A stretch of DNA of 64,000 nt, taken from Microgenomates group bacterium (GTDB lineage Bacteria > Patescibacteriota > Microgenomatia > UBA1406 > GWC2-37-13). This document shows, piece by piece, positions 24,314-61,525 of the stretch. A program made the position numbers and the translations under genes. Location of the stretch: contig JARYMT010000001.1 in the NCBI GenBank assembly GCA_029906985.1, positions 67,223 to 131,222 of the forward strand. The letters run 5' to 3'. Position 1 is the first letter of the stretch. Each line of letters starts with the position of its first letter. Under the pieces are notes generated by a model. The model worked only from the letters and a program-made list of their open reading frames with translations, searched no databases and was not told the DNA's origin.

Positions 24314-24351
24314 AATTGTAAATTTTTGATTTTTAATTAAATATTTTCTCT

Positions 24352-24552: not shown

Positions 24553-25851
24553 TTAACCGGTTTTTAATGATTCTAAAAATTCTTGATTGTTTTTAGTCTT
24601 TGATAGTTTTTCAATTAGGGCAGTCAGGGCTTCTTCCGGTGTCAAAAGTGATAGCATTCTTCTTAAAGTGGCGACTTTTTTTAACATTTCTTTATCAAAC
24701 AGCAATTCTTCGTGGCGCGTCCCTGATTTTAAGATATCAATCGCTGGAAAAATTCTTTTATCGGCAAATTGCCGCTCAAGGTGAATTTCCATATTGCCTG
24801 TTCCTTTGAATTCTTCATAGATCAAATCGTCCATTCTTGATTCTGTCCCCACTAGGGCAGTGCCAATGATCGTCAAACTTCCGCCTTCTTCACAGTTTCG
24901 GGCGGCCCCGAGAAATTTTTTCGCCGGATAAAGAGCTGATGGATCAAAACCACCGGATAAACTTCTTCCAGTATTATTTACGGAAAGATTTAAGGCGCGC
25001 GCCAGCCGAGTCACCGAATCCAAAAGAATAATGACATCTTCACCCATCTCTACTAACCTTTTAGCTCTTTCTAAAGCTAAATTAGCCACTTTTACTTGCT
25101 GGCGGGGTGACTCATCAAAATTTGAGGCCGCCACCTCTCCTTTAATAAATCGTTTGATTTCAGTTACTTCCTCTGGTCTTTCTCCAATTAAAATCGCCAT
25201 AATTTTTACTTTGGGATAATTGATAGCGATTGCTTCGGCAATTTCTTTAAGAAAAGTAGTTTTCCCTGCTTTTGGCTGAGAGACAATTAAAGCTCGTTGA
25301 CCAAAACCGATTGGCGCCAGAAGGTCAATAATTCTGGTTGACAAAACTTCTTTATTAGTCTCCAGTTTAATTTGTTTGTTCGGGTGAAGTGAAGTGAGTT
25401 GGTCAAAATTTTTTCTCTGTCGGCTTTCTTCCTCGGTCATTACCTGATTGTTGATTTTTTTGATTAAAAGCAAGCTATGAAATCTTTCTCCTTCTTTGGG
25501 AGGCCGAGCTAAACCTTCAACTTCATCGCCTCGACGCAACCAAAATCTTCTAATTTGTGAGGTAGAAACATAAATATCCTGGTTTGGGTCGATAAAATAA
25601 TCCTTTCGTAAAAAACCATAACCCCCAAAGGTAATATCAAGAATCCCCTTGGCCGGATAACTAATTTTTAAATCTTCCTTTAATCTTTCTTCTAAAGGAA
25701 TTTCTTTTTCCATTGTAGACGAGGAGGTAAGATTTTCTTCGGGGACAATTGGCTTTTCTTCATATTTGTCGAGAATTTTTGCTACATCTAGCTCTTCACT
25801 TTCAATTTTAGTTTTTTTCCCTGATGTCCGGGTAGTTTTTCTGGGGAGCAT
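24553..25851 (-). CDS. rho: transcription termination factor Rho
   Basis: Rho N-terminal domain plus cold-shock-like RNA-binding domain (GYGFLR), Walker [16 protein letters not shown], full-length similarity pattern. Confidence 0.95.
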
Positions 25852-25969
25852 AAATAGAATATAAAATTATAATAAATAAAAAAATAATAATAACCCTAAA
25901 TTTTAAAATTAAACCAATTCATACTTTTTGATTTTTTCTTCTAAGAAGGCCATTATGAGGTAATATAAT

Positions 25970-26147
25970 GATCCTCCCGAATGAGCAACAAGGAACTTTT
26001 TCCCTGTAAATAAATGGGGAGAAAGGCTCCGAACCCTTAAGGATCCGGAGACGCTATCTCATTTCAGGCGCCGATTGGTGCCCGATTACCCTTAAGTTTG
26101 ATAGCGTAGAGAAAAAGTTTTCAAAGTTTTTCCTCATCAGGAGGATC
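25970..26147 (-). ncRNA. 178-nt structured RNA (unclassified): rho 5' leader element or independent small RNA
   Basis: The ends pair over about 14 bp (GAUCCUCCUGAUGAG / CUCAUUCGGGAGGAUC). The stem continues as AACUUUUUCUC/GGGAAAAAGUU. Internal perfect 8-bp stem ACGCUAUC/GAUAGCGU and a 10-bp hairpin CUCCGGAUCC-UUAA-GGGUUCGGAG. GC visibly above the flanks. A minus-strand TTGACA-18-TATACT promoter (26154-26183) places the TSS at about 26147, the first base of the closing stem. Confidence 0.4.
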
Positions 26148-26314
26148 AGTCAAAGTATACTAAATTTAAATATCGCTTGTCAAGCCGAATATTTTTATCA
26201 TCTTTTGGGGATGATTCTTATCGAGTTTGCGGTTTTAAATTTTAATTTCGGACTTTCTTTATTTTTTTTAGCAGAGAATTAATGAATTTTGATTTTAAAT
26301 TATATAATTAATTT

Positions 26315-37875: not shown

Positions 37876-39828
37876 ATGCTCTCCCAATTTTTGATTAAAC
37901 AAAAAAAAATCCTTCTTCTTTCTTCTTTTTTTATTATCTTTTTTTCAGTTACCGCCATAACAATAAATGAAATTAATAAACCTAAAACATTCAAATCCAA
38001 AGCTAGCGAGATTTCACCAACGCCTCCTTCGGCCGGACACTCACCAAAAAAAGGCGTTGCCGGAACCAAAGCGTTTGAACCGCCAAGATTTAATACAACC
38101 GCCGCTGAAATAAAAGCTTCCTGGTATTACAACTGGTCCTGGGTGCCCTTTGATCGCAGTCTTGGTGACACTGTTGCTTTTAATAGCAATTATTGGACAA
38201 GTCCAGAGTTTGTTCCTACTTTTCTTTCTCGAGGACAAAACTGTGGCTGTCAGACTGAGGCAAAAAGGACCGCATTAACAAATTCCGTTGTTTATCGTAT
38301 GAATCTTATCTGTTCAAAAGGATTTTGTAATCAGGGTCGCTATTACTTAGTTGGAAATGAGCCTGAAATTCCCGGTCAAGATCTTTGCCCAAACAGTCCT
38401 GATCCTGTTCAGGATGCAGTCAACTGTTATGGGGTTATTGCTAAAACGATTAAAATAAAAGATCCGACTGCTAAATTAATTATGCTTGGCCTGGGTTCAG
38501 ACAACGCCGCCTTTATTAGATCCTATATCCAAAAATGGAAAATTGCCTGGGATGGAACTGAAATTGCTGATCTTTCGCAGGTGGCCAACGGCTGGCATTT
38601 TCATGATTATGGTAGTTATAACCGCTGCCCAACCGATGACGTCCGGGCCCGCAATCTTAAAACAGCGGTTGATCAAGAGATGCAGGCAAACTTTGGACGA
38701 ACCATTAATAATCAAGAAATCTGGATAACCGAGATGGGAAGCTTGTCTCCCCCAAATCCTTCAAATACCGTTGAAAGGCAAAAATTCCTTAATCTTATGG
38801 AATGTTTGGTTAATGTATATGAGGCTTCACCGATCGTAAATCGTTATGCCTGGTTTTATACCGGGGACCTTACTCAAGATTGGCCCCTAACCAGTCTTTA
38901 TATTCCGAATGCTTCAGGTGGCTACAACATCACCGATCTTGGAATTAAATACGGCCTTCTCCCTCCCGGTCCTTCCCCATCCCCAACTCCTCTGCCTGAA
39001 AATTGTCAGACCTTTGGTCAGTCGACAGTTGATCAAAAACAAGAAAATAAATGGCGTTATCAAATAATAAATTCTGGTTGGGGCTATGGAGGACCCCTAA
39101 CATTTTATCCTCAAGTTATGGGCAAGCTTGACAAGGTTGAACTTTATGTTGCCGGCTCCGGGAAAATTCAGGTGAAAATAGTTAATCAATCAGGAGTTGA
39201 TATTAGCGATACGATTGAAAAAAATATCGCCGGTGAAGGCTGGCTTGAGTTTGACTTTTTAACCGAAGAGGTTGTTGTCCCTGGTAATTTGTATACAATT
39301 CTTTTTCGAGATTCTGGATCGTCTAATGACGTCAGGCTGTATCGAGGCGACTCATGGAACTGGGCGTATCGGCAGTATGTCAAACCTTGTCAATCCGACG
39401 CCATTACTCCGACTCCAACTCAAAGTCCTACCCCGACTCTCACCGGCCAACCAACCCAGCCTCCATCAACCCCCACCCCGACTCCACCTGCTTCTGCTAA
39501 CCGGGCTCCAGTAATTACCACCTTTGGCTTTTTTCCAGATGGCTATGTTGGACAAATATACAGACCAAACGGAAGAATTTTTTATGTTGAAGGCTATGAT
39601 GAAGATGTTAACGATAATTTAATAATGAAATATTATGGTCCACCTCCGGGGATATCTTTACAAAACTGTAGTCAATTTTTGGTTAATAATAAACGAATGA
39701 TAAAATGTGAAATTTCTGGCACTGTTGATGCCAATACAATTGTTAAAACCTACTATGGACGAATCATTCTTGTTGACTCCCGGGGCGGCCAGACAGAAAA
39801 AAATGTCGCCATTAGAATCACTAATTAA
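37876..39828 (+). CDS. secreted clan GH-A-like glycoside hydrolase (Glyco_hydro_cc-like) with PT linkers and C-terminal Ig/cadherin-like domain
   Basis: N-terminal TM/signal. ASWYYNWSW motif, acid/base-like VGNEPE and nucleophile-like IWITEMGS. PSPSPTP and TPTPTQSPTPT linkers. Confidence 0.55.
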   Translation: MLSQFLIKQKKILLLSSFFIIFFSVTAITINEINKPKTFKSKASEISPTPPSAGHSPKKGVAGTKAFEPPRFNTTAAEIKASWYYNWSWVPFDRSLGDTVAFNSNYWTSPEFVPTFLSRGQNCGCQTEAKRTALTNSVVYRMNLICSKGFCNQGRYYLVGNEPEIPGQDLCPNSPDPVQDAVNCYGVIAKTIKIKDPTAKLIMLGLGSDNAAFIRSYIQKWKIAWDGTEIADLSQVANGWHFHDYGSYNRCPTDDVRARNLKTAVDQEMQANFGRTINNQEIWITEMGSLSPPNPSNTVERQKFLNLMECLVNVYEASPIVNRYAWFYTGDLTQDWPLTSLYIPNASGGYNITDLGIKYGLLPPGPSPSPTPLPENCQTFGQSTVDQKQENKWRYQIINSGWGYGGPLTFYPQVMGKLDKVELYVAGSGKIQVKIVNQSGVDISDTIEKNIAGEGWLEFDFLTEEVVVPGNLYTILFRDSGSSNDVRLYRGDSWNWAYRQYVKPCQSDAITPTPTQSPTPTLTGQPTQPPSTPTPTPPASANRAPVITTFGFFPDGYVGQIYRPNGRIFYVEGYDEDVNDNLIMKYYGPPPGISLQNCSQFLVNNKRMIKCEISGTVDANTIVKTYYGRIILVDSRGGQTEKNVAIRITN

Positions 39829-39916
39829 ATGATAATAAAAAACTCCCTGTAGCAGCTAAGAAAATTGATGGAAAAATTATCTTTGAAGTTTGAATTTAGT
39901 TTGTCTTTTTGATTGA

Positions 39917-40459
39917 TTAAATCTGTTTTTCTCTTTTTTTGGTGGTTATTCGTCCACCTTGCCATTGCCCTCGATAAAGGCTTCCCCCTCCTTTAACTTC
40001 CTCAAACTGGGCATGGACAATCCGACAGCCCATCTCTAAAGTAACCGCCATTGGGCCATCGTTTTTGATGGCAAAAGTTAGTTTTCCGCAATAACCGGGG
40101 GCGACATTGCCTGTCCTTATGATTAGCCCACAACGAAAAGTGGTCGTCCTTGGTTTAAAATTAACCGTGATATTTTTGGGGGTGTTGACTTTTTCAATTG
40201 TTGTTGCTAAATAATATGCTTGCGGTTTTAAGGTAATTGTTTGACTTTTGTCAGGCTGGTAAGCGGCGACTAATTTGATTTTGGGTGTCTCTCTTTCTTC
40301 TTCTCCCAAAAAAGCTTTTCCGCCGCTGATTTGATAAATTTCTCCCAGTCTTAGGTCAAAACCAGCCCCTTCGGGATTAGTTAACTCGCGTTTTGCCAAC
40401 CCCTCAACTAGTTTTTTTTCTTTGACTAATTTTAAAAGTATTTTTGGTCCTAAAATCAT
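39917..40459 (-). CDS. dcd: dCTP deaminase / dUTPase-superfamily protein
   Basis: GAGFDLRLG, LATTIEKVNTP, FKPRTTTFRCGLII, APGYCGKLTFAIKNDGP follow the Dcd pattern. Confidence 0.7.
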   Translation of the reverse strand: MILGPKILLKLVKEKKLVEGLAKRELTNPEGAGFDLRLGEIYQISGGKAFLGEEERETPKIKLVAAYQPDKSQTITLKPQAYYLATTIEKVNTPKNITVNFKPRTTTFRCGLIIRTGNVAPGYCGKLTFAIKNDGPMAVTLEMGCRIVHAQFEEVKGGGSLYRGQWQGGRITTKKREKQI

Positions 40460-40603: not shown

Positions 40604-41140
40604 ATGCTTAAACGTTCTCTTCGCACCGATATTTTCTTGGCTTTTATTTTGTTATTTGCCGGCGTCAATCTTACTGGTTGGAAAAATGTTCTTCCCTTTT
40701 TAACAAAAAATTTTACCTTAGCTTTTTATCCTCTTTTGACAATCGCTTTTCTTCTTTTAATTGTTTTTTATTTTATTGGCAAAAAAAGGAAAAGCGGTTT
40801 TCTTTTTGGTTTTCATTTTTGGCTGACTTTGCTGGTTTATCCGCTTTGGGCATTGATTCAACAGTTAATTGTAATCTTATTGGTCTATCTTCCGGTTTTT
40901 AAATTAAGTAATTCACCTTTGGTGGCGGTTTTTTTTGGCTCATTATTTTTTGCCGCTCTTCATCTTCCTAATTTTAAATTTTTTTTGGCGACGCTATTTG
41001 GAGAACTGATATTCCTAACTGTTTTCAGTCAAACTGGTAATATCCTGGCTGTTGCCATTTGCCACAGTCTTATTGCTCCGAGCTATTACTTCTGGGTCCA
41101 CGGCGACGACGTTCTTAAACGAAGATTTGCGGGAAGATAA
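40604..41140 (+). CDS. CPBP (CAAX protease/Abi)-family intramembrane protein, possibly catalytically degenerate
   Basis: Polytopic. FFAALHLPN and CHSLIAP motifs are retained, but the usual EExxxR position reads IQQLIV. Confidence 0.45.
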   Translation: MLKRSLRTDIFLAFILLFAGVNLTGWKNVLPFLTKNFTLAFYPLLTIAFLLLIVFYFIGKKRKSGFLFGFHFWLTLLVYPLWALIQQLIVILLVYLPVFKLSNSPLVAVFFGSLFFAALHLPNFKFFLATLFGELIFLTVFSQTGNILAVAICHSLIAPSYYFWVHGDDVLKRRFAGR

Positions 41141-41230
41141 TTTTTAATTTTTACATCACTCATAATACCTACCTACCGGCAGACAGGTTTAAACATTAGA
41201 AATTAATTCATTGAAAATTCATTAGAAATT

Positions 41231-42016
41231 TTAGACAATCCCTATCTCTTTAATCTCAAACCCTCCATCAGCCTCAAAGTTAACCTGATAGATCGGCAAG
41301 CCCTTAGCTAGTCTTCTTGAGGTTTCCATTAAATGATTCTCCGCCATTTCCGACAAAACCTGATAAAGATATTCTCCGTTTAGGCTTTTATAAAGCTTGA
41401 CTGCTTTTTGTTTAACTAATTCTTCTGCCAGTTTTTTATATCTTTCCTGGGCTAGGCTCTGATGATAAACAAAAACCTGAACTTCAATTTTGCCTTCTTG
41501 ACTGTCTAAGTTATAACGGGGATAAAGGCTGTAGGGGCCAGAAACGATTAACACCGCCCCCTCAAGATGTTCGCCGTGAAGAATAATTTCTTTCGCTCCT
41601 TTTTTTTTGGCGCTGGTAAATTTTGCTCGTATTTTTTCGACCTGTTTTTTGTCAAGATTATAAGCTTGGGAGTCAAGGGTCATTTGTTTGAAATGACCGC
41701 AGCCTCCAAGCGTGAGATTTTTTTCGGCGTGAGAATCGGTATGGAACTGGAGATTTTTTTCTCCGCCAACCATTTCCACCAAGACTTGATATGCTTTATC
41801 AAGATCAACTTCAAAGCCATAAGAATTGCCTGTGGCTAAAATCAAGGCTAGATCTCCGGCATCCGCCCCCGGCACCCCGATAGGCGCCAACTGACCTTGA
41901 ACCTGGTATCTACCGTCTATGCATCTACTCGCCAGCCTCATCTTAGCTTCAACTTTATAATGATTGTCCGAAACAATTTTCCTCACCTGTTCAATTGAAA
42001 GAATATATTTTTTCAT
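41231..42016 (-). CDS. hypothetical protein (CIDGR ... HTDSH ... GGCGH motifs)
   Basis: 261-aa soluble ORF, no family recognised. The Cys/Asp/His motif spacing is loosely beta-CA-like. Confidence 0.4.
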   Translation of the reverse strand: MKKYILSIEQVRKIVSDNHYKVEAKMRLASRCIDGRYQVQGQLAPIGVPGADAGDLALILATGNSYGFEVDLDKAYQVLVEMVGGEKNLQFHTDSHAEKNLTLGGCGHFKQMTLDSQAYNLDKKQVEKIRAKFTSAKKKGAKEIILHGEHLEGAVLIVSGPYSLYPRYNLDSQEGKIEVQVFVYHQSLAQERYKKLAEELVKQKAVKLYKSLNGEYLYQVLSEMAENHLMETSRRLAKGLPIYQVNFEADGGFEIKEIGIV

Positions 42017-42101
42017 ATAAGAAAAAATTATATCACATGTTTCTAAAACCTTTGGGGTTTTATTGAAAAGTAAAAATCAAAGATTGAATTATTAACAAAA
42101 G

Positions 42102-42130
42102 TTGACTTTTTTCCCCTAGTTTTATATAAT
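42102..42130 (+). promoter_or_regulatory. near-consensus sigma-70-type promoter TTGACT-17-TATAAT
   Basis: TTGACT at 42102-42107, a 17-nt spacer, TATAAT at 42125-42130. No coding gene for about 490 nt downstream. Confidence 0.55.
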
Positions 42131-42136
42131 TTGCTA

Positions 42137-42620
42137 TAGGCTATTTTATCGCCTGAAGTGCGGTTTAATAAAGTTCGTAAAACAAGCAAACGAACTAACA
42201 AAAAAACAATTAAACCGCTTTTTTGATGTTCTTAAAATCAAAGCTTGAGTCAAGCATTCAGGCTTCAAAAATAAGGATTTTAAGCGCGCACCTTAACAAC
42301 CAGCAGCAACTTGAGGTTCCACACAAATTCCTAATAGGGATTTAATCTATTAAGGTTTGTTGGGAACCGAAATCCAGCCGTAGCGATTAACTCTCTATAT
42401 CTAAAATTAGATGTTTGAGATTATTCGCGTAGGCGGATCAAAAAGGTTATCTCCTTTTAAAAGTTGCCTTCCACTTTAAATCGGTCCAAAAGACGGGTTT
42501 AGAGAGGAAGCGCAACTTATATCGAATAAACAACGAGGAGGTGATGGAGTGATCAAATAAAAAACAACTGAATACGGATCAATTCGTGCAGTATCTAGTT
42601 CCATAGGGAGAAAAAGACCA
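42137..42620 (+). ncRNA. about 0.5-kb hairpin-rich non-coding transcript (large ncRNA or long structured leader of 42624..43001)
   Basis: No ORF of 60 aa or more on either strand. Successive imperfect long hairpins at about 42170-42228, 42315-42368, 42378-42436, 42441-42458 and 42464-42515. GC visibly above the genome background. Confidence 0.35.
42170..42234 (+). terminator. intrinsic-terminator/attenuator-like hairpin plus T-tract about 35-100 nt after the predicted TSS
   Basis: GCGGTTTAAT...(inner GTTCGT/ACGAAC)...ATTAAACCGC followed by TTTTTT (42229-42234). Confidence 0.45.
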
Positions 42621-42623
42621 ACT

Positions 42624-43001
42624 ATGAGAAAGAAAGTAGCTTACTTGATACTTGTCGCGGTGCTCCTCGTCGTTCTCGTGCCAACCTTCACGGACGACAC
42701 TTTTGCCGCCGGCCCAACCCTCAAGCCCGGAACGCTTGTCCGGATCACTGGACGAGGGTACTATAACCCTGAATGCGTCGGGTTTAGAGGGTGGCTATGG
42801 GAAGGTTCTAACCCCCAACAGTTCTACCGAATTTGCGGGTTGCCTCACGGCTATGACCATGGCATAGGAGTAGTTACTCCGAACAATTCGGGAGGTTACT
42901 ACTTTAACAAATGCTATCGAGTCTGCTTCGCATACGAAATTTGCGCATGGTACCCAACAAAATCTCTGGTGCCACTACCGTGGCAACCGGCGATCAGGTA
43001 G
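42624..43001 (+). CDS. small secreted Cys-rich protein, compositionally foreign
   Basis: 125 aa. Signal peptide MRKKVAYLILVAVLLVVLVPTFTDDTFA|AG. The mature part of about 95 aa has 5 Cys and many Gly/Tyr/Trp. Codon choice is GC-rich (CTC, GTC, GCC, CGG), unlike the neighbours. GGGAG lies 14 nt upstream of the ATG. Confidence 0.6.
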   Translation: MRKKVAYLILVAVLLVVLVPTFTDDTFAAGPTLKPGTLVRITGRGYYNPECVGFRGWLWEGSNPQQFYRICGLPHGYDHGIGVVTPNNSGGYYFNKCYRVCFAYEICAWYPTKSLVPLPWQPAIR

Positions 43002-43041
43002 ACTCACCTCTGGGAGAAGAATGAGCGTAACAACGCTCAGA

Positions 43042-43087
43042 GTGGAGAGACGATGTCGTCTCTCCACCTCCCTTTCGGGGGTTTTTC
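43042..43087 (+). terminator. intrinsic terminator (two hairpins plus T-tract)
   Basis: 12-bp perfect stem GTGGAGAGACGA-TG-TCGTCTCTCCAC, then CCC-TTTC-GGG followed by GTTTTT. Confidence 0.65.
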
Positions 43088-43164
43088 CGTAGTTGTTGCT
43101 GCTGGTGTTTGTTGTTTAGGCTTAATCTTTTAAACCTAAACAACAAGCTAATTTAAGTCTGTTT

Positions 43165-44352
43165 TTACTCTTGCTTAAAAAAGGTAGAAATGAGTGCCAA
43201 CGTTTTTGGCCCAAGTCCTCTTATTTTTCGACCATTGTCTCCCTTTAGCCATTGTTTAAGATCTTCGATACTTGTTATTCCTCCTCTTATTAACATCCGT
43301 ATAATCCTTGTCGCCTGACTCTGGTTTGTTTGCCCTAACAAAAATGCCTGAAGCAAAGCAAGAGGGTTTTGGTCTTTTCTTAAACAATGTTTATCAAGCC
43401 TGTTTATCATTCTTTTTATGGTATTTTTTACCTCCTTAAAAGTTAATCCAAGCTCTTCTGCGATCTGTTTATAATTTTTTTTCTCAAATAAATATTTTTG
43501 TAAAATTATCCGCTCAAATTCACTAGTTAATTGATCAATAATTCCCTCTTCGGCTGCTTGTTGATAAATTCTGAGGAATTGTTCCCGGATTTTCGGAACC
43601 AGACCAAGAAAATACATCCGTTTGGCTATCCATAGATATTTGTCTCCAACCCCATATTCATAAGCTAAAGTTTTTAAACTCCAACCGCGCCGTACTGCCT
43701 CTTCATAAACAGCTTCTACTGGTCTGCCAAAAACTGCTTTCAGTTGAGCCTTATATTTTTCTCTTCTTTGCTCATCGGTCATTTTTTTATAAAGACGTTG
43801 TTTCCTTGACTTTGGCCAATTTTGATAATCTATTCCAAATTTCCTAAACCAGCCACAAACTGTTTGAAAATTAAGCCCTAATAAGTTGGCCAAAGCCGCC
43901 GGCCTCATCCTCATTCTTATAATAAATTGTCTAAGCGACTCCCCCGGTTGCCTCAGTTCTTCCAATTTAGGAGATTTTACTCTCTGTGAAAATCTTTTTT
44001 TAGAGGGAGGCAATGATTTCCAGTCTGCTCCAACACGCTTTAACAAAGCTTTCGCTTCATCGTAGGGAATATTAAATAAGTCGGCGATTTCATTTGGTCT
44101 CATTCCAGAATAAAGTATAACCTCCTCAACCGTCTCACCGGCGACTCTTAGGGCTTCTGCTGTTTCTTGAATCTTTCCTGGTTTTAATGGTTTTGTAATT
44201 TTTTCTTTGTTGGGAGGAGTTATTCCATGGGTCGATAAGTAATCTGCTCTTGTATTTAAAACCCGAATCATTGCTTGGACCAAGCTGCCAACAGATTCTT
44301 TTGAAACTGGTGGTGCCTGATCTGCTTCCGGCCGACAAAAAACTTTTTCCAT
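43165..44352 (-). CDS. multi-HTH protein with sigma-70 region-4-like HTH and RNAP alpha-CTD-like HhH domain (paralogue A)
   Basis: 395 aa. Three repeated HTH-like modules (MRPNEIADLFNIPYDEAKALLKRVGADW; MRPAALANLLGLNFQTVCGWFRKFGIDY; WSLKTLAYEYGVGDKYLWIAKR). Sigma-r4-like ERIILQKYLFEKKNYKQIAEELGLTFKEVKNTIKRMINRL. C-terminal RMLIRGGITSIEDLKQW...IRGLGPKTLALI. Confidence 0.55.
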   Translation of the reverse strand: MEKVFCRPEADQAPPVSKESVGSLVQAMIRVLNTRADYLSTHGITPPNKEKITKPLKPGKIQETAEALRVAGETVEEVILYSGMRPNEIADLFNIPYDEAKALLKRVGADWKSLPPSKKRFSQRVKSPKLEELRQPGESLRQFIIRMRMRPAALANLLGLNFQTVCGWFRKFGIDYQNWPKSRKQRLYKKMTDEQRREKYKAQLKAVFGRPVEAVYEEAVRRGWSLKTLAYEYGVGDKYLWIAKRMYFLGLVPKIREQFLRIYQQAAEEGIIDQLTSEFERIILQKYLFEKKNYKQIAEELGLTFKEVKNTIKRMINRLDKHCLRKDQNPLALLQAFLLGQTNQSQATRIIRMLIRGGITSIEDLKQWLKGDNGRKIRGLGPKTLALISTFFKQE

Positions 44353-44477
44353 ATTTAATATTATACCTTATAATACTATAAGATAAATGTGATGTCACCT
44401 GTTAACTATTTACTGACTTCTCCCCATACCGACTAGTGCGGGCAATATTTTAGCTCCATACCAAACGGTGCGGGACT

Positions 44478-44705
44478 TAAAAAGACCATATTTTATTATT
44501 CAAACCTATCAAGATTTCTCCCCAGTTATTATTCGAGTAAGCGGAGGGTGTCAAGAACTATTCCCGGTTACTGTTCGAGCTTGTCAAGAAACATCCTTGG
44601 TTATTATTTAAGCTTGTCAAGAATCTTTATGTTGTTTAAGCAATCCCAGATAAGAAGAGTCCAATAATTAAAAAAATAAACTTTTAAATAATACAAATTG
44701 TAGTG
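44478..44705. repeat. 228-bp direct repeat, copy A (four tandem TTGACA-containing units plus A/T-rich tail)
   Basis: By eye, identical to 46735-46969 except one substitution (44538 t versus 46795 c) and a 7-nt TTAATTA indel near the end. Internal units GTTAYTRTTYRAGC..TTGTCAAGAA have motif starts at 44507 (degenerate), 44549, 44582 and 44615, giving spacings of 42, 33 and 33 nt. Confidence 0.9.
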
Positions 44706-44905
44706 GGGAAAAGGGGGGCGTTCACGTATTAAACCTTTTTAACCTAAAAAGCTATTTAAAAAAAGCAGGTGTCGGAAAGAAAGAAGAAATATTAAGAACT
44801 AAAAATATCACAAACTTTTAAAAGACCACCTTAATTAGAATTAATAAATAACCAATTTCTTAAACTTAATCAACTTTTAGTAAAGCGTTTTATCTCATAA
44901 AAGCT

Positions 44906-46627
44906 TCACGTATTCTTGCTGTTTTCCCAATCATTGACCTGGTCTCTTATTTTTTGTAACTGTTCTTTTATCTTATCAATCTGATGCGGTTTGATGCCTA
45001 AATTTCTCAATTCAGAATCATTACAGGATAATAAAAATTCTAGGGTAGTTTTTTTGTTGTCTCTTAAAAAACGATTAGATATTCTTGCGCCGGCGATTAA
45101 CCGGATTTCCCCCCATTCAGCTGATTGACTGGAAATAATATTTTTTTCAAATAATTTCCGCCTTAACTCATTAATCTGAGTAGGTTTTAATCCTTTGGTT
45201 ATTAATTCGTCATCACTTAGCGTGGCCACTTCTGCTGGTGAGATCTTTAAACGATATAGTCTATTACTAAGTCTTGGTCGAAGCTTAAAATCTGACCATT
45301 TTGCCTCTCTCTTTAGGTCTTCTTGCCAGAGGATAAATTTTTGATAATTAAATTTGGTTTGCAAAGTTAAAGACAAAGTTCCTTCGATCGCTCTAGCCAA
45401 ATTTAAACCATGATCGTTTAACCAGTCTTTAATATCTTGAAGAGTTTTGTTTCCGATCCCTCTTATGCGCCGTAATTGTTGCGGAGTTAGCGCTTTTAAC
45501 TCATCTATAGTAGTAATTCCCCCCCTCAATAAGGCGTTTCTGGCCCGAATTGGTAATCCGGAAAATGGGTCGACTACTCCTAGTTCCACCGCTCCCCAAG
45601 ATTTATTAATATTAATAGCTTTAAGAATTTTTGTTTTTATGCTTTGAAGATGTTGAAGAATTCTTTGTCTGGTGACTCGACCAAATTTTTCCTGATATTT
45701 TTCTAGAAGTTCGCTAATATTGGTAACTAATCCCTTTTTTAATAGATCGAAAATAAATTCTTGTTTGGGCGATAAAGATAAAGACAAATCAGGATATTTT
45801 CCAATTACCCATTTAAATACTCCAACTCGTCCTAATTGACTTATTTCTCTGGTCTTTTCTAACCAATCTCTTAAAGTATCAGGATTTATTCCTTTTTTAT
45901 GAGCAATGTCTCTTAAACTAAGGTTGTTAAAAAAAATTTGTTTTATGATTGTATCGAGATAATCTTTACCAAAGTAGCCCTCCAGTTTTGTTTTTGCTTT
46001 ACCCCTTTTTACCTCGGGAGGCGTTTTTTCTTTTATTGAGACTTCATCTTTGGGAAAATCTGAAAAAGGTATTCCCAATCTTCGATAAAGATAATAAACC
46101 AATGCCTTTCGTTGCCGAGGCAAATGAAGCATTCTACATAATTTATCTGGTCTTAATTGATTACTTATAATATATGTTGTTAATTCTTCTTCCCTGTCGG
46201 GAAAACCGTATTTTTGTAATAATTCTTTTGTTTTTTCTTTTAGACGAAACGGTCTTTCAAAAAACGGCCAATCAGCCCCAACTCCTTCTAATAAAGCTCT
46301 TGCCCGGGACGGACTTACTTTTAATATTCGTGCCAACCTTCCGATGGTTGGTTGTGCCGCCGCCAGCCATTCTTCTGGCGTTTGACCGGGAGTTCTTTGG
46401 ACTCTTATTTTATCAAGTTCAACAGGACTAAAAACTCCCGACAAAGGTTTAATCCCGGTTATAGGCGGACCATCAAGACCTTTTGATCTTAAAAAATTTA
46501 TTCTTGTAGCTACTATGGACACTATTTGAAGAACTAACCCGAGCGCATTATTATCTGGCTTAACTTGTTCGTCATTTTCTTTTGGGGGTTCAACAAGATT
46601 TTGTCCTAATGAACATATTCTTTCCAT
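44906..46627 (-). CDS. multi-HTH protein with three RNAP alpha-CTD-like HhH repeats (paralogue B)
   Basis: 573 aa. The N-terminal about 350 aa are collinear with 43165..44352 (e.g. IGRLARILKVSPSRARALLEGVGADW; LSLRDIAHKKGINPDTLRDWLEK). GLPIRARNALLRGGITTIDELKALTPQQLRRIRGIGNKTLQDIKDWLNDHGLNL closely follows the alpha-CTD pattern. Two further degenerate copies follow. Confidence 0.6.
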   Translation of the reverse strand: MERICSLGQNLVEPPKENDEQVKPDNNALGLVLQIVSIVATRINFLRSKGLDGPPITGIKPLSGVFSPVELDKIRVQRTPGQTPEEWLAAAQPTIGRLARILKVSPSRARALLEGVGADWPFFERPFRLKEKTKELLQKYGFPDREEELTTYIISNQLRPDKLCRMLHLPRQRKALVYYLYRRLGIPFSDFPKDEVSIKEKTPPEVKRGKAKTKLEGYFGKDYLDTIIKQIFFNNLSLRDIAHKKGINPDTLRDWLEKTREISQLGRVGVFKWVIGKYPDLSLSLSPKQEFIFDLLKKGLVTNISELLEKYQEKFGRVTRQRILQHLQSIKTKILKAININKSWGAVELGVVDPFSGLPIRARNALLRGGITTIDELKALTPQQLRRIRGIGNKTLQDIKDWLNDHGLNLARAIEGTLSLTLQTKFNYQKFILWQEDLKREAKWSDFKLRPRLSNRLYRLKISPAEVATLSDDELITKGLKPTQINELRRKLFEKNIISSQSAEWGEIRLIAGARISNRFLRDNKKTTLEFLLSCNDSELRNLGIKPHQIDKIKEQLQKIRDQVNDWENSKNT

Positions 46628-46633
46628 TCTTGT

Positions 46634-46662
46634 ATTATACTTTTAAAAATACTATAAGTCAA
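46634..46662 (-). promoter_or_regulatory. consensus promoter TTGACT-17-TATAAT placed for a leaderless mRNA of 44906..46627
   Basis: On the minus strand, TTGACT lies at 46657-46662, followed by a 17-nt spacer and TATAAT at 46634-46639, then ACAAGA and the ATG (46625-46627). The expected +1 therefore coincides with the A of the ATG. The homologous sequence upstream of 44352 reads CTTATAGTATTATAAGGTATAAT-N7-ATG. Confidence 0.55.
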
Positions 46663-46734
46663 TTATAATTAACTTATCAGTGGCGAAATTTTTCCATGAA
46701 TAGTTTTTATTAAGTGGCCTTAGGTAATTTGTGG

Positions 46735-46969
46735 TAAAAAGACCATATTTTATTATTCAAACCTATCAAGATTTCTCCCCAGTTATTATTCGAGCAAGCG
46801 GAGGGTGTCAAGAACTATTCCCGGTTACTGTTCGAGCTTGTCAAGAAACATCCTTGGTTATTATTTAAGCTTGTCAAGAATCTTTATGTTGTTTAAGCAA
46901 TCCCAGATAAGAAGAGTCCAATAATTAAAAAAATAAACTTTTAAATAATACAATTAATTAATTGTAGTG
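46735..46969. repeat. 235-bp direct repeat, copy B
   Basis: See copy A. Same orientation, offset 2257 bp, located upstream (in the minus-strand sense) of 44906..46627. Confidence 0.9.
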
Positions 46970-47209
46970 AAAAAATAAGTTATTGTTTAGGACTAGTTTA
47001 GAATTAAAATTGGGCAGCAAACTTTGTTATGAAGCGAGAATTTCACACCTCAACCTTGTTTCGTCAAAAGTTTAAAGAAACATTATTAAAAGATCCCTTA
47101 CGCGGTGTCCTATAAATTTGGGGTTGGCTTATCAATCAATAATAATTTAATCTAAATTATTTGGGTTAATCAGAATAATTAAGCTAGTTAAATCTGTTAA
47201 AATTTCTTT

Positions 47210-48361
47210 ATGGCCGCTTCAGTGATTGTCTTTGATCCAACCGCAAATGATGAATTAAGCCGTGTCCGCGGTGTTGGCCGCTACCTACAAATTCTAAAAG
47301 AAAATTTTTCCGGAGAATGGATTTTTACCAACAATTTAACCACAAAGCAATTGAGCTATTCAACAATTTTCATTAACCCATTTTTTAACTTCCTTCAACC
47401 GCCTCTAACTCTCAAACGCCTTGCCAAAAAACAGATCGCCGTTATTCATGATCTTATTCCCTTAAAATATCCCGGGCATTTTCCCGCCGGAATCAAAGGA
47501 AAGATAAATGTCTTTTTAAACAAACTGACTTTAAAAAATTATGACTTAATAATAACCGACTCTGAGGCCTCAAAAAAAGACATTATTCAAATACTTAATC
47601 AACTGCCGGAAAAAGTTAAGGTAGTTTATCCTTGTTTACCAACAGTTTTTAGGGAAAATAAAAATCGGAAAGAGGCTGTGACAGCGAGCCAAAAAAATTT
47701 AAGCAAAATTTTGTTTCCAGACCCACCTCCTAACTTTTGTATTTATGTCGGCGACGCTACCTGGAATAAAAATTTAGTCAACCTGGCAAAGGCAATAAAG
47801 ATAATAAATGTTCCGTGTGTTTTCGTCGGGAAAGTTTTTAGCGCGGGTGGTGAGCGACGGGGGGACCCAACGAGCCGAGCGACATTATCCGCACGGAAGC
47901 ATTTACCAAGTGAGGCGAGCGAGGCTGGGGCTGGCGCGAACCAAGACCCGCCGAAAAATCCATGGTTAAACGAACTCAATCAATTCCTTTTTGAAGCCAA
48001 AAACGACCAACGCTTTATTTTTCCCGGTTTTGTACCTGATGAAAGGCTAATCCAACTCTATAAGCAGGCGAGATTAAACATTCTTGTTTCCCGTGACGAA
48101 GGCTTCGGTTTCTCCTACTTTGAAGCCGCCTCCCAAGGCTGCTCATCAGTTCTTTCCGACATTCCGGTTTTTCGCGAAACCGCCGATAGTGCTGCTTTAT
48201 TTGCCAACCCAAATAATCCAAATGAGATTGCCGATCAAATCGGCGAACTTTATTTTAATGAAGAATTAAGAAATAATTTTAGTCAAAAAGCAAAAAAGCG
48301 CTTCCGTCAATTTTCTCCAGAGAAATTCAAAAGAGAGTTTCTTAATTCGCTTAATTTTTAG
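47210..48361 (+). CDS. family 4 (GT-B, group 1) glycosyltransferase with GC-rich internal insertion
   Basis: C-terminal GT1 core ..VSRDEGFGFSYFEAASQGCSSVLSDIPVFRE.. (EX7E-type). The segment 47841-47955 encodes SAGGERRGDPTSRATLSARKHLPSEASEAGAGANQDPP and is strikingly GC-rich. Confidence 0.8.
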   Translation: MAASVIVFDPTANDELSRVRGVGRYLQILKENFSGEWIFTNNLTTKQLSYSTIFINPFFNFLQPPLTLKRLAKKQIAVIHDLIPLKYPGHFPAGIKGKINVFLNKLTLKNYDLIITDSEASKKDIIQILNQLPEKVKVVYPCLPTVFRENKNRKEAVTASQKNLSKILFPDPPPNFCIYVGDATWNKNLVNLAKAIKIINVPCVFVGKVFSAGGERRGDPTSRATLSARKHLPSEASEAGAGANQDPPKNPWLNELNQFLFEAKNDQRFIFPGFVPDERLIQLYKQARLNILVSRDEGFGFSYFEAASQGCSSVLSDIPVFRETADSAALFANPNNPNEIADQIGELYFNEELRNNFSQKAKKRFRQFSPEKFKREFLNSLNF

Positions 48362-48373
48362 CTTGTTTTTGCC

Positions 48374-48424
48374 ATAAAGGTTGACCGTGGGGGTCAAATT
48401 TATGGCGTCAATATAATCCAAAAT
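48374..48424. repeat. 51-nt hairpin-containing repeat, copy 1 (downstream of GT4)
   Basis: ATAAAGGTTGACCGTGGGGGTCAAATTTATGGCGTCAATATAATCCAAAAT versus 51678-51728, with 4 mismatches by eye. Contains the TTGACC/GGTCAA stem extended by ATAAAGG/TTTATGG. Confidence 0.8.
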
Positions 48425-48488
48425 TTGCTAAAAATTGACTTTTTTTGTTCTTGTTTTTTTTATTGAAATTTATTATTCTAAATAATTA

Positions 48489-51400
48489 ATGCCTATTTTA
48501 AAATCAATTTCAAAATCAACTTGGTTGATTTTTTCTTTCTTTTTTTTAATTGTCGTTATTGCTGCCGGAGTTCATCTTGATCAAAAAGCAAGGATTTTAA
48601 AAAATAGAGCCCAGGAAAAAGTACCTCCTGAATTTGAATTAAAAAAACCGGAATATGCTAAAGGAGAAGTAATTATAAAGCTCAAAACGGGCAGTTTAAA
48701 TTTGAAATCGAGTGGCGGACAAGCTCTTTCTGATAAAATACCCAACCCACTAAATGAAATTGAAGAAACAATACTTCCTGAGTCATTAAAATCATTTAAG
48801 AAAAAACACCCGGAAGCAAAAATAAAAAAAGTTTTCACAAACTATACTAATCCTTCAGACGAATTAAAAACTTTTAAACAAAAATTTTCAGAAGATCTCA
48901 AAACTGGTAAACGAAAAATCAACGAGCAAGGAATCTTAAAAATTGATTTAGGAGGAATTTATCTACTTAGTTTTGATCAAAATGTGCCAGTTGAATCAAT
49001 AATCTTAGAACTCATTAATCATCCAGAGGTTGCCTATGCCGAACCAAATTATATTTATACAATTAACGCAGAATCTAATGATCCCTATTACTTAGATAGT
49101 TACCCTGATAATATAGCCAATCGGGACCCTGCCTGGAACCCAAGCTACGACTATCAATGGAACCTTAAAAAAATCAATGTTCAACAGGCTTGGGATATTC
49201 CCTTAACCCATGAAACAATTGTGGCAGTTATTGATACCGGAGTTGATTATACCCACGAGGAATTCGGTAACTGCACTTTAACAATGATTAATAATAATCA
49301 ATGCCAAAAAATTACAGCTGGCTTTAATTATATAGACCTATCTGACGATCCAATTGATGATCATGGCCACGGCACCCATGTCGCAGGAATTATCGCCGCA
49401 GCCACCAATAATAATAAAGGCGTTGCCTCTCTTGATAGAAATAATAATTTAAGAATTATGCCAATTAAATCCCTTGCTAAAGACGGCGCTGGTTATCTTG
49501 ATGACGTAGCAAGTTCTATCGTGTTTGCTTCTCAAAATGGAGCAAAAGTAATCAACATGAGTCTTGGTTCTGGTCCTTATGAAGTAGAGGAAGAAACCGA
49601 AAGAGAGGTTATAGAATTTGCTTTTAATTTTGGTGTGACTATAGTTGCCTCCGCTGGTAATAAAAATATTGATGTGGCTGATGGCTACTGGCCAGCTAAT
49701 AATCAGTATGTTATTTCTGTTGCCGCTACCGATCAAAATGACAACAAGGCTCTCTACTCTAATTTTGGAAACATAGATGTAGCTGCCCCGGGAGGAGAAA
49801 AACCATACAATTTATTATCTTTAAATGCCCATGACCCGGCTAATTCATCAAGTTTTTTAAATTTAGGCAACCTCCCTGTTGGGAATGGTTATCTACGTCT
49901 GGCTGGGACATCAATGGCCGCTCCCCATGTTGCTGGTTTAGCTGGATTAATTTTATCCAAAAATCCAAATTTAAATCCATTAGAGGTCAGGTCAATTATT
50001 GAATTATCTGCTGATTCAATGGGAGATCCAGGAATAAATAGTTATTTCGGTTGGGGAAGAATTAATGCTTTTAAAGCGCTTTCTTTTAACGGTTCTCCAC
50101 CTGTGGCGGAAATTTACTCGCCGACAAGAAATCAAATAGTTCACGGTGTTTGTGAAATTATCGGTACGGCTACCGCAGTTAATTTTTCCAGTTTTAATCT
50201 CTCTGTCGGTCTCGGCGCCCACCCAACTCAGTGGTCAAGTCTTGGAATTACCCAAACTACTAATAATTCTGTTGAAAATGGCTTGTTGGGGACAATTGAT
50301 GTTTCCTATTACAAAAACCAACAATTTACTATCAGACTACAAACAAATACTTTAACAGGCCAAACAAAAGAAGCCTATGTTTTTGTTTCTAATTTCATCT
50401 ATAGTGTCCCGTCTTTACCATCATCGCCTGAATGTCCCTACCCAACAAGACGGTTTTCTATTTATTATGGTTATGCCTACATTAATAATCAATTGGCGCC
50501 AGAAGGAACAAAAATCTGGGCAGTCACCCCCCGAGGCGAAATTGCTGGTTGCCAAACCGTTATAGAAAATGGGATGATTCAATTTATGCATGTTTATGGA
50601 GAAGATGAACCGAATATGCCGGGAATGAGAACAAATGAACCAATTAGTATTTATGTCAACGATTCTTATGCTACTACTGTTCCTTCAACTTTGTTTTGGC
50701 AAAATGATTGGAATACTCATATGATAGAAGTTTATGCCCCAGCTCCGGGCCAGCAAATAAGTTTAAACACTGGTTGGAATTGGATAACTCAAAGAACACT
50801 TATTCCTGATCCAGCTATTGCTGGAGCCCTATCAAGCATCTCTGGCAAATATGATCAAGTTTTGGCCGAAAACGGTATCTATTCTTCCTGGTTGCCGCCG
50901 GTATACAATACGCTTAATAACTTATCAGCTGGCGCCATGTATATGATTCATGCCACTGACATTGCCGAACTAAAACTATATGGAGAGCCTATCCCCGTTT
51001 CCCAACCCATATCTCTTCATCAGGGATGGAATTGGATTGGGTACTATGGTCAAAGCCCGATGTCAATAACAGTGGCTTTAAGTTCTATTTCCGGTCAATA
51101 CTCAAGTGTCTTAAGCGAAGATGAATACTACGATCCTCTTAATCCTGATTATTCTTCTTTACAAACCCTGATACCAAATAAAGGATACCTTTTAAAATCA
51201 AAAATTAATCAAACTCTAATCTACCCTTCCTCAACTACTCAAGCCGCTAATCAAGCCACTAATTCTGTGTTGGGGGTAGCATCAACTTCCCTTTGTAAAA
51301 AAACAGTCACCAATATCTACACCAATGTTTATGCTAAAATTCCTAAATCAGTTTTTAATGCCAAAGATGATTTGACAGCAAAATTTATAACACCAAGCGG

Positions 51401-51662
51401 TGTCATCGCCGGTTGTGGGACCATCCAAAGAAATTTATTAAAAATAACTCGTTTGTTTGGTGAGGAATCAATTAATGGAAAAATTTACCCCGGTTTTAAA
51501 AAAGACGATTTGGTTAGAGTAGAAATAATTAATAACCGAACTCAAAAATCAATAGGGACCTTTGCCACAAATTTTAAGTTCACTCCCGATGATCAAGCTC
51601 ATTTTATTGAAATTGTTACTTCCTCACAGTCTCCAACCCCAACCCCAAGACGAAAAAAGTAA
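48489..51662 (+). CDS. S8 family subtilisin-like serine protease with I9-like propeptide and about 500-aa C-terminal extension
   Basis: N-terminal TM/signal. Catalytic triad motifs VIDTGVD, HGHGTHVAGII, GTSMAAPHVAGLAGL. Internal duplications in the C-terminal half. The protein ends in SPTPTPRRKK. Confidence 0.9.
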   Translation: MPILKSISKSTWLIFSFFFLIVVIAAGVHLDQKARILKNRAQEKVPPEFELKKPEYAKGEVIIKLKTGSLNLKSSGGQALSDKIPNPLNEIEETILPESLKSFKKKHPEAKIKKVFTNYTNPSDELKTFKQKFSEDLKTGKRKINEQGILKIDLGGIYLLSFDQNVPVESIILELINHPEVAYAEPNYIYTINAESNDPYYLDSYPDNIANRDPAWNPSYDYQWNLKKINVQQAWDIPLTHETIVAVIDTGVDYTHEEFGNCTLTMINNNQCQKITAGFNYIDLSDDPIDDHGHGTHVAGIIAAATNNNKGVASLDRNNNLRIMPIKSLAKDGAGYLDDVASSIVFASQNGAKVINMSLGSGPYEVEEETEREVIEFAFNFGVTIVASAGNKNIDVADGYWPANNQYVISVAATDQNDNKALYSNFGNIDVAAPGGEKPYNLLSLNAHDPANSSSFLNLGNLPVGNGYLRLAGTSMAAPHVAGLAGLILSKNPNLNPLEVRSIIELSADSMGDPGINSYFGWGRINAFKALSFNGSPPVAEIYSPTRNQIVHGVCEIIGTATAVNFSSFNLSVGLGAHPTQWSSLGITQTTNNSVENGLLGTIDVSYYKNQQFTIRLQTNTLTGQTKEAYVFVSNFIYSVPSLPSSPECPYPTRRFSIYYGYAYINNQLAPEGTKIWAVTPRGEIAGCQTVIENGMIQFMHVYGEDEPNMPGMRTNEPISIYVNDSYATTVPSTLFWQNDWNTHMIEVYAPAPGQQISLNTGWNWITQRTLIPDPAIAGALSSISGKYDQVLAENGIYSSWLPPVYNTLNNLSAGAMYMIHATDIAELKLYGEPIPVSQPISLHQGWNWIGYYGQSPMSITVALSSISGQYSSVLSEDEYYDPLNPDYSSLQTLIPNKGYLLKSKINQTLIYPSSTTQAANQATNSVLGVASTSLCKKTVTNIYTNVYAKIPKSVFNAKDDLTAKFITPSGVIAGCGTIQRNLLKITRLFGEESINGKIYPGFKKDDLVRVEIINNRTQKSIGTFATNFKFTPDDQAHFIEIVTSSQSPTPTPRRKK

Positions 51663-60941: not shown

Positions 60942-61107
60942 AAATTAATTATACAATAATTTTTTATAACCAAATAAAAATATGACCATAATAATCTAAA
61001 ATTAAAAATTTTGGTTAGATAATTTATCAGTTTTTTTTATTTATTAATTAGCGTTTTTAATTAGGTTATTAATTAATAAATAATAAATTTAGTAAAATAT
61101 AGATAAC

Positions 61108-61181
61108 GGAGTGTAGTTCAGATGGCTAGAACGTCAGGCTGGGGGTCTGAAGGTCGCCGGTTCAAGTCCGGCCACTCCGAC
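61108..61181 (+). tRNA. tRNA-Pro (anticodon GGG), CCA not encoded
   Basis: Manual cloverleaf. Acceptor CGGAGTG/CACTCCG plus discriminator A. D arm GTTC-AGATGGCTA-GAAC. Anticodon arm TCAGG-CTGGGGG-TCTGA (anticodon GGG, G37). Variable loop AGGTC. T arm GCCGG-TTCAAGT-CCGGC. Confidence 0.9.
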
Positions 61182-61380
61182 TATTCTAAGCATTGCCAAT
61201 TTTATGGGCCTTATCCGCGATACGAAGCTTGGATCGCCAGGAGGTTTATGCTCTCATCGGGGCAGAAATTCTTGTTAAAAAAAATTTACCCTTCATTTAG
61301 TAAATTACAATCAGAGTTTTTTAAAAACATTAACTATAACAGTATAAAAAAATATAAAAACGCCCTATCAAACCCACTAA

Positions 61381-61415
61381 AAAACTCACTACAATTAATT
61401 AATTAATTGTAGTGA
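61381..61415 (-). terminator. intrinsic terminator of pyrH (A/T palindrome plus T-tract)
   Basis: Perfect palindrome CACTACAATTAATTAATTAATTGTAGTG (61388-61415), followed on the minus strand by AGTTTTTT. Confidence 0.5.
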
Positions 61416-61525
61416 AATTGGGAGTTGGTTTATTAAAAATTAATATGTTTTTTTATTGATTTAAACAATTAAAGAATTGTTTAAATTGTACAAATAAATT
61501 CTAAGGGAGTTTTTGAAATAATTAT

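Follow-up and report, generated by a model that had tools for sequence, protein, structure and literature searches.

Positions 42017-47209 of the DNA analysed here lie between two conserved genes and hold a pair of paralogous genes for putative transcription regulators, H395 and H573, together with a structured transcription unit that has no recognisable relatives. The DNA as a whole, referred to below as the window, comprises 64,000 nucleotides of a 299-kb contig from a metagenome-assembled genome (MAG) of the Microgenomates group, part of the candidate phyla radiation (CPR). The explanation that is tentatively favoured here treats the two components as unrelated, lineage-specific fillings of one permissive, variable slot. 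The slot itself is a normally short (about 100 bp or less) divergent promoter region on an otherwise syntenic Microgenomates backbone, and this backbone is chromosomal.

A variable slot between two conserved genes

Along the region lie, in this order, a promoter on the + strand, 490 nt free of open reading frames (ORFs), a 125-codon ORF (+), a cluster of hairpins, and the genes for H395 (-) and H573 (-). The region is flanked on one side by a gene for a GT4 glycosyltransferase (starting at 47210, +) and on the other by a conserved gene for a 261-aa protein (41231-42016, -). At NCBI, the 261-aa protein, H395, H573 and the GT4 enzyme are MDH7475939 to MDH7475942. The three large non-coding gaps that a first-pass annotation of the sequence had singled out, 42017-42623 (607 nt), 44353-44905 (553 nt) and 46628-47209 (582 nt), are indeed the largest without an RNA gene in the window, counting between ORFs of at least 100 aa. 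A gap of similar size, 60942-61525, contains the window's only tRNA (at 61107); the remaining long gaps are 24169-24552 and 25852-26314.

Synteny was compared across 14 loci of GTDB species representatives, fetched with the 261-aa protein, and two metagenome contigs reached via distant relatives of the paralogues (L001 and L002). Among the 13 related Roizmanbacteria/Microgenomates contigs that have both flanking genes, these are direct divergent neighbours in eight, with at most about 100 nt between them (L003, L004, L005, L007, L009, L011, L015 and L016); region 42017-47209 therefore fills a variable slot. Other contigs carry other cargo at this position. In L012 it consists of guaA, guaB and a deaminase-like gene. 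L013 (3833-9962) and L014 (5133-9957) harbour a cassette encoding an 830-840-aa protein with zero Pfam domains, a convergent regulator (~400 aa) whose C-terminus is of the OmpR type (Trans_reg_C), and small proteins of 155 and 138 aa that appear membrane-associated. Three genes for proteins with multiple helix-turn-helix (HTH) units occupy the slot in L002, and L001 has one such multi-HTH gene divergent from GT4. The gene order RpiB-TatD-GT4-[HTH genes]-261aa-DCD-ThyA-DHFR-QueA-TGT is common to the window and L002. Trees of the GT4 and 261-aa proteins are star-like; in them the window clusters with L001, and L002 is placed elsewhere.

The synteny thus bears out the initial view of the region as an accessory block. 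It contradicts the accompanying suggestion of a single self-contained module: L001 and L002 have multi-HTH genes in the same slot without the structured RNA/ORF unit or the upstream repeat described below, the cargo of L012, L013 and L014 is different again, and odd composition is found only in the 1.1-kb unit.

Domain architecture of H395 and H573

H395 (43165-44352, -; MDH7475940, 'hypothetical' at NCBI) and H573 (44906-46627, -; MDH7475941, 'helix-hairpin-helix domain-containing protein') comprise 395 and 573 aa, respectively. Their designation as divergent multi-HTH paralogues holds: BLASTP aligns them with 26% identity over 417 columns (E = 2e-18), and the alignment spans all of H395. H395 consists of about three HTH units, a sigma-70 region-4 HTH (sigma4; aa 272-320) and a helix-hairpin-helix (HhH; aa ~345-392) that resembles the C-terminal domain of the RNA polymerase alpha subunit (alpha-CTD). 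H573 has the same layout, followed by a 165-aa C-terminal extension with more HhH/SAM-like units.

These assignments rest on several profile comparisons. In Pfam, Sigma70_r4 (PF04545) matches H395 at aa 273-319 (E = 2e-5; 24.5 bits against a cut-off of 24.1), RNA_pol_A_CTD (PF03118) matches H573 at aa 358-404 (E = 7.5e-11; 42 bits against a cut-off of 23.8), and the N-terminal halves of both proteins give several weaker HTH matches. The NCBIfam model TIGR02937, of the extracytoplasmic function (ECF) type, aligns with aa 168-321 of H395 (E = 9.6e-9) at 35 bits, below its cut-off of 42.9, and the alignment takes in profile positions 59-163 only, that is, linker and region 4. The rpoA models of NCBIfam cover only aa 358-412 of H573, with 12-38 bits against cut-offs of 227-523. 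Hidden Markov models (HMMs) made in this analysis locate the sigma4 HTH of H573 at aa 284-328 and find both the sigma4 and the alpha-CTD domain in each protein. The resulting architecture, a region-4 HTH followed by at least one alpha-CTD-like HhH on one polypeptide, is present in both paralogues.

The likeness to alpha-CTD (PF03118; PDB 3gfk, 1lb2) includes a common HhH fold signature. A profile built from four family sequences retrieves alpha-CTD chains from the PDB, down to E = 8.7e-10 (Bacillus subtilis, 3gfk), and the HhH of H573 aligns without gaps with E. coli alpha-CTD (34% identity, 59 aa). Most of the DNA-binding '265 determinant' is kept in H573: R265, N268, G296 and K298 are present, and S299 is replaced by T. 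In E. coli, these residues serve in UP-element binding. The alpha-CTD-like copy in H395 has diverged so far that it gives no pairwise match with the E. coli domain; profile and paralogy alone detect it.

Sigma70_r2, the Pfam model for sigma region 2, has no match in either protein at E <= 0.1, and there is no match to the alpha N-terminal domain (Pfam RNA_pol_A_bac and RNA_pol_L); therefore, H395 and H573 are neither sigma factors nor alpha subunits. Unlike RpoA, they lack the N-terminal dimerisation and assembly domain, and their CTD-like domain stands behind HTH modules in proteins of 395-573 aa. With sigma-70 factors (PF04545, TIGR02937) they share a region-4.2-type HTH, such as VTRQRILQ in H573, but without region 2 they would be capable of neither core binding nor -10 recognition, and they score below the NCBIfam cut-off; hence, they may offer sigma-like DNA reading without sigma function. 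The tandem arrangement of short HTH units is reminiscent of the multi-HTH arms of homing endonucleases and transposases (NUMOD/HTH_23/HTH_28/HTH_Tnp_1), and the HTH parts do give weak matches to HTH_23, HTH_28, HTH_Tnp_1 and the PHROG groups 'HNH endonuclease' and 'transposase'. By analogy, each unit could read one segment of a long target. In contrast to those enzymes, H395 and H573 have no nuclease or transposase catalytic domain.

AlphaFold2 (AF2) models H395 as a row of small, entirely helical modules. Foldseek with this model returned nothing at E <= 0.001, only local likeness to sigma4/LuxR-type HTH structures (e.g. 3hug, 8jzt).

Relatives and the wider sigma4/alpha-CTD class

A word-indexed search of 5.8e9 proteins with H395 and H573 retrieved only themselves. 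HMMER against 1.84e9 representatives gave 178 matches, nearly all via the HhH alone; among the matches listed, the full HTH-sigma4-HhH span was aligned only by P0005 (from L001) and P0030 (from L002), and the genes of both adjoin GT4. A further match, P0055, has the repeated HTH unit and sigma4 in common with the paralogues. Sigma70_r4 is recognised in P0030 with E = 2e-9 and in P0055 with E = 8e-20. Identity to the counterparts is 49-64% for flanking genes and only ~27% for the HTH proteins; the latter therefore evolve fast.

The combination of domains is much more widespread than the full-length proteins. Pfam finds Sigma70_r4 in 39 and RNA_pol_A_CTD in 78 of the best 80 matches, and with the HMMs made here a sigma4-then-alpha-CTD core is seen in 72 of 152 proteins (150 listed matches plus two flanking proteins). 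The initial statement that the proteins could not be named beyond domain level is thus correct in so far as only domain-level matches exist, and incomplete in that their core recurs widely. Source annotations of these proteins carry uninformative names, and a literature search found no paper naming both Sigma70_r4 and RNA_pol_A_CTD. Judged by sequence, this is an uncharacterised class, of which H395 and H573 form a small, fast-evolving branch.

Metagenomic members of the class (P0046/P0157, L145-L148) have the same core order as H395 and H573 and, like them, tend to come in tandem groups of two or three. They differ in being mostly either 110-400 aa long and devoid of N-terminal tandem HTH units, or 700-1200 aa long, with three alpha-CTDs first; identity to H395 and H573 outside the HhH is negligible. 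Some of their genes lie on a conjugative element, whereas those in the window lie on a chromosomal backbone. Small proteins of this class are encoded as two or three tandem paralogues in L145 (1958-3701), L146 (5417-13156), L147 and L148. In L146-L148 they directly follow genes for a type IV secretion system (T4SS) coupling protein of the TraG/VirD4 type and an NlpC/P60 hydrolase, with RelB/ParE and an IS605 OrfB/TnpB gene nearby; these neighbours indicate a conjugative element.

Tandem paralogues are also seen within the slot of L002, where 6752-11389 carries three tandem multi-HTH/sigma4/alpha-CTD genes encoding 925, 100 and 462 aa. They have DNA segments of 215-300 nt in common, with 72-89% identity, a pattern that appears to indicate recent duplication or gene conversion and recombination ongoing within the locus.

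Promoters and an upstream repeat

The H573 gene is preceded by a promoter at 46634..46662 (-), TTGACT-17-TATAAT, with 11 of 12 consensus matches and a -10 box that ends 6 nt before the ATG. In the H395 promoter region (44360..44398, -), TATAAT occupies 44365..44360, 7 nt before the ATG; further upstream is an alternative promoter, GTGACA-17-TATTAT. Going by this spacing, neither mRNA is likely to have more than a very short leader, if any. The pattern CTTATAGTAT...GTATAAT is common to the H395, H573 and L001 promoters, and the H573 promoter is conserved ahead of the L001 gene (ATTGACTTATAGTATnnnAAAAGTATAAT; 90% identity, 31 nt).

Upstream of both promoters lies a repeat (copy 1, 44478..44706; copy 2, 46735..46970). 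The first-pass annotation had described it as nearly identical and about 230 bp long, and the alignment agrees: the cores, 44478-44696 and 46735-46953, are 219 nt long with one mismatch (99.54% identity), followed past a 7-nt indel by ~10 more matching nt, and the edges are sharp. The distance to the ATG is 126 nt for H395 and 108 nt for H573. Each copy contains three boxes TGTCAAGAA (on the gene strand TTCTTGACA) spaced by exactly 33 bp, at 44549, 44582 and 44615 in copy 1 and at 46806, 46839 and 46872 in copy 2. The window holds eight such boxes against 0.49 expected, six of them inside the repeats, and two of the three boxes per repeat fall within a 9-bp palindrome, CTTGTCAAG. Read on the gene strand, TTCTTGACA amounts to a -35-like hexamer without a usable -10. 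The repeat folds less than shuffled controls (z = +1 to +2.3) and is therefore a DNA-level feature, not an RNA; for the same reason, a reading as an integron attC site was rejected.

A search of metagenome and viral contigs for three TGTCAAGAA boxes with 20-28-nt gaps yielded more than 120 matches, every one an unrelated repeat of tandem or coding type. With H573 between them, the two copies form direct repeats at a distance of 2257 bp, and deletion or amplification variants are therefore predicted. Each copy also contains a short ORF on the + strand (44468-44611, 47 codons; 46731-46868, 45 codons), in which the one mismatched position exchanges Val for Ala. These ORFs were rejected as genes, having no ribosome-binding site, no family and a GTG start that lies just outside the repeat.

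According to the favoured explanation, H395 and H573 would be resident, fast-evolving, sequence-specific DNA-binding regulators of transcription that carry only the two modules with which polymerase reads -35 and UP elements. They would bind the three 33-bp-phased TTCTTGACA boxes upstream of their own promoters, as candidate operator arrays, and in this way may regulate themselves and each other. Given that the repeats are 99.5% identical and the proteins 26%, the control region has probably undergone a recent copying or gene-conversion event.

The orphan transcription unit

The second component occupies 42102-43150. It begins with a near-consensus sigma-70-type promoter at 42102..42130 (+; TTGACT, 17 nt, TATAAT), which with 11 of 12 matches is joint best in 41000-48500 and points at a structured leader and the 125-codon ORF. 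The leader (42137..42623, +; ~490 nt) is a multi-hairpin structure or, alternatively, the 5' half of a non-coding RNA (ncRNA). The initial description of about 0.5 kb of hairpin-rich sequence behind a consensus promoter is well supported, as folding of the 488 nt downstream of the promoter gives z = -8.06 for the + strand and -4.7 for the - strand. The first hairpin (42160-42218) is interrupted and terminator-like, followed by U6, and resembles an attenuator. Long hairpins follow at 42229-42277, 42315-42368, 42372-42438 and 42461-42518, with single-hairpin z-scores from -2.8 to -7.9.

The GC-rich ORF noted at the outset (42624..43001, +) has a GC content of 0.52, and 0.57 at third codon positions (GC3). 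Its start is signal-peptide-like (MRKKVAYLILVAVLLVVLVPTFTDDTFA/AG); by eye, KK, 15 hydrophobic residues and TFA/AG have the look of a canonical Sec signal peptide. The mature part is rich in Tyr, Gly, Pro, Cys and Trp. AF2 gives the 125-aa protein a pLDDT of 50 overall, with a confident N-terminal helix (aa 2-18). Pfam, NCBIfam, PHROGs and PADLOC contain no family for it, and its sequence is absent from the protein collection.

Behind the ORF lies a convergent terminator zone (43013..43148, +). It comprises three stacked hairpins ending CCCUUUCGGGGG and U5 (43013-43089), then a 14-bp hairpin (43107-43148); terminator-like sites are at 43066-43082 (+) and 43039-43022 (-), and the terminator hairpins have z = -4.9 and -5.4. 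In a folding scan of the whole window (200-nt pieces, n = 638, against shuffled controls), the most extreme piece was 43001-43200, with z = -9.6 on the + and -6.3 on the - strand, and the second was 42401-42600 (+), with z = -7.3 against -2.0 on the - strand.

Searches for relatives were negative. The Rfam check proposed for the non-coding parts gave no family match: none of 4227 families reached its gathering score on the structured unit, and the best sub-threshold hits (E ~0.5 or higher) were biologically irrelevant. Blastn found no DNA homologue of the 1.1-kb unit in phages or plasmids, and in all 148 fetched loci, compared with both this unit and the upstream repeat, the sole match was the 31-nt promoter in L001. 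Readings as a group II intron, tmRNA, retron or CRISPR were rejected, with no Rfam or ARAGORN signal and no reverse transcriptase or Cas gene.

On the explanation favoured here, 42102-43150 would be an independent transcription unit, probably horizontally acquired. A strong promoter would drive a long multi-hairpin leader, whose attenuator-like first hairpin precedes a gene for a small, putatively secreted, Cys/Tyr-rich protein and strong terminators. That the ORF is a gene, and the unit thus leader plus coding sequence, is somewhat better than an even proposition.

Composition

The first-pass annotation had called the whole 5.2 kb compositionally odd. This is true for ~42.0-43.2 kb, to which the oddity is confined and which coincides with the 1.1-kb orphan unit, and it does not apply to the paralogue genes. 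By tetranucleotide distance of 2-kb segments (n = 125), those over 41.5-44.5 kb rank 1, 3 and 5, with 41501-43500 first and 42501-44500 third. The H395 and H573 genes fall at ranks 15-36, with GC3 values of 0.30 and 0.26; other genes have a GC3 of ~0.26-0.40, save for two that lie elsewhere in the window. H395 and H573 are therefore native in composition.

Ranks 2 and 4 are held by two other deviant segments. The first, 38001-40000, carries a 650-aa glycosyl hydrolase gene (37876-39828, +) with Pro/Thr-rich linkers; the second, 49001-51000, carries a 1057-aa S8 protease gene (48489-51662, +). Both genes are insertions relative to the syntenic backbone of L002, and both proteins are, in our reading of their sequences, secreted. 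The two inserts point to lineage-specific secretome genes that were probably acquired. A horizontally acquired gene for a secreted protein would fit this pattern of window-specific deviant inserts and is, given what these two encode, the simpler reading of the orphan unit.

A local GC spike of 0.54 occurs at 46300-46400, within the 5' part of the H573 coding sequence. The piece 46201-46400 (-) has z = -4.4 on the H573 sense strand and may be a structured mRNA segment.

Weighing the explanations

Several observations weigh against the favoured explanation. The AF2 model of H395 is weak (pLDDT 63, pTM 0.31), and the sigma4 recognition helices of H395 and H573 are unlike each other. L001 and L002 lack both the TTCTTGACA arrays and the 219-bp repeat, and the operator idea therefore rests on one genome, within which the two repeat copies are not independent as evidence. 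As regards the orphan unit, the Shine-Dalgarno sequence of the ORF is badly spaced, and the leader has no homologue and thus no covariation support. The period-3 signal of the ORF is weak (1.4; genes here 0.6-6.3, leader 0.5), the 125-aa protein has no homologue in a word search of 5.8e9 proteins, in viral contigs, in metagenome contigs or in the PDB, and NCBI locus tags run from 00505 to 00510 across the ORF, leaving nothing annotated over 1148 bp. These last three points also speak for a rather unlikely but substantial rival, according to which the ORF is spurious and 42137-43090 is one GC-rich structured ncRNA of ~950 nt, a new class with a consensus promoter and stacked terminators. GC-rich islands in AT-rich genomes are classic signals of RNA genes, and the unit is such an outlier among intergenic regions, like the large ncRNAs of the OLE, GOLLD and ROOL class; it shares a strong promoter and excess folding with these and with structured 5' leaders and attenuators. 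Its folding is asymmetric between strands; z is -10.5 for the whole 965 nt and -7.5 for the half with ORF and terminators (42600-43100). Yet the ORF body is only moderately folded (z = -2.1 and -3.7), with the extremes in its flanks; its frame stays open for 146 codons, whereas none of the other five exceeds 72, and it includes 10 Tyr codons (TAY) without a preceding in-frame stop; and the N-terminus looks like a canonical Sec signal peptide. Rfam gives nothing even at E = 10, and neither a second copy nor a homologue supports an RNA family. Unlike OLE, GOLLD or ROOL, the unit occurs once and is a string of long near-perfect hairpins with no obviously complex tertiary architecture.

Other rivals concern the block as a whole or its repeats. 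It is distinctly improbable that the block arrived in one piece and is what is left of a mobile element or genomic island regulated by the sigma4/alpha-CTD proteins. The site is empty in most relatives, the orphan unit is compositionally foreign, and sigma4-alpha-CTD triplets do stand beside a T4SS coupling protein, NlpC/P60, RelB/ParE and an IS605-type gene in L146-L148. However, Pfam, NCBIfam, PHROGs and PADLOC reveal no integrase, transposase, recombinase or relaxase in the block and ~10 kb either side, and no replication or phage gene in or near it, just as the first-pass annotation had stated. ARAGORN finds no tRNA or tmRNA in 41000-48000, no att-like direct repeat pairs the two ends of 42017-47209, and foreign composition does not extend throughout, the paralogues having native GC3 and ordinary tetranucleotide usage. 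Moreover, L001 and L002 hold the same family in the same position, without the other parts and with the promoter conserved. Less credible still is the idea that the 219-bp repeats are iteron-type replication sites or centromere-like partition sites, with Rep- or ParB-like HTH proteins. It would account for three direct repeats phased at 33 bp beside an A/T-rich tract, and KorA/KorB-type HTH folds are among the weak matches; against this, cumulative GC skew is monotonic through the region with no switch, no Rep, ParA or DnaA-type gene is nearby, the two copies sit exactly upstream of two promoters on a chromosomal backbone, and relatives that have the proteins lack the repeats. There is a small chance that the repeat has no function of its own and reflects a recent duplication on the spot, a small non-autonomous repeat or misassembly of the MAG. 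Its 99.5% identity, razor-sharp edges, unrelated flanks and mere two copies in 64 kb are in keeping with this, as is the recombination between paralogues common at the locus in L002. The near-equal distances of the copies from the start codons are not, and 33-bp phasing of a 9-mer is unexpected for a neutral duplication. As for a small non-autonomous repeat such as a miniature inverted-repeat transposable element (MITE), which would show terminal inverted repeats, target-site duplication and many copies, neither of the first two is found at the repeat edges, and the 64-kb window contains no third copy. A more ambitious view of the paralogues, which we consider unlikely, is that they belong to a widespread, unstudied class of polymerase mimics in which free-standing sigma region 4 and alpha-CTD modules occlude or decoy polymerase at -35-like and UP-like arrays. 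The three phased TTCTTGACA boxes would then be the array that is occupied, with autoregulation at this locus, and on conjugative elements the class would control element genes.

Neighbouring genes and other observations

The 261-aa flanking protein (41231-42016, -) is 43-52% identical across Roizmanbacteria/Microgenomates (L002-L016). In the 13 related loci long enough to show it, its gene is followed, directly or past a short insert, by a dCTP deaminase gene; further along, the window and L002 have genes for thymidylate synthase and DHFR. The protein gives zero matches in Pfam, NCBIfam, PHROGs and the PDB. The blocks CIDGRY, PGAD.G, HTDSHA and GGCGH[FW]KQ are identical between it and its L002 homologue, and such conservation suggests an unrecognised enzyme, perhaps of deoxynucleotide metabolism.

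Elsewhere in the window, a 463-nt gap (25852-26314, -) lies upstream of the gene for the Rho termination factor (24553-25851). Its piece 26001-26200 (-) ranks fourth in the folding scan of the window (z = -5.5), and z for the entire gap is -3.0; it has no Rfam match. To judge from its position and folding, the gap is probably a long autoregulatory rho leader.

Implications

Both components are observations from a single genome, and their value is that of a lead rather than a discovery. For the orphan unit, the alternatives are a secreted effector gained by horizontal transfer, with an unusually elaborate leader, and a large RNA that has no relatives. The wider sigma4/alpha-CTD class, including its copies on a conjugative element, is without a described function. 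To our knowledge, CPR bacteria have few recognisable regulators; if the interpretation of H395 and H573 is true, a family that diversifies rapidly, forms paralogues and reuses the promoter-reading domains of polymerase would represent a new route of transcription control in these reduced genomes.

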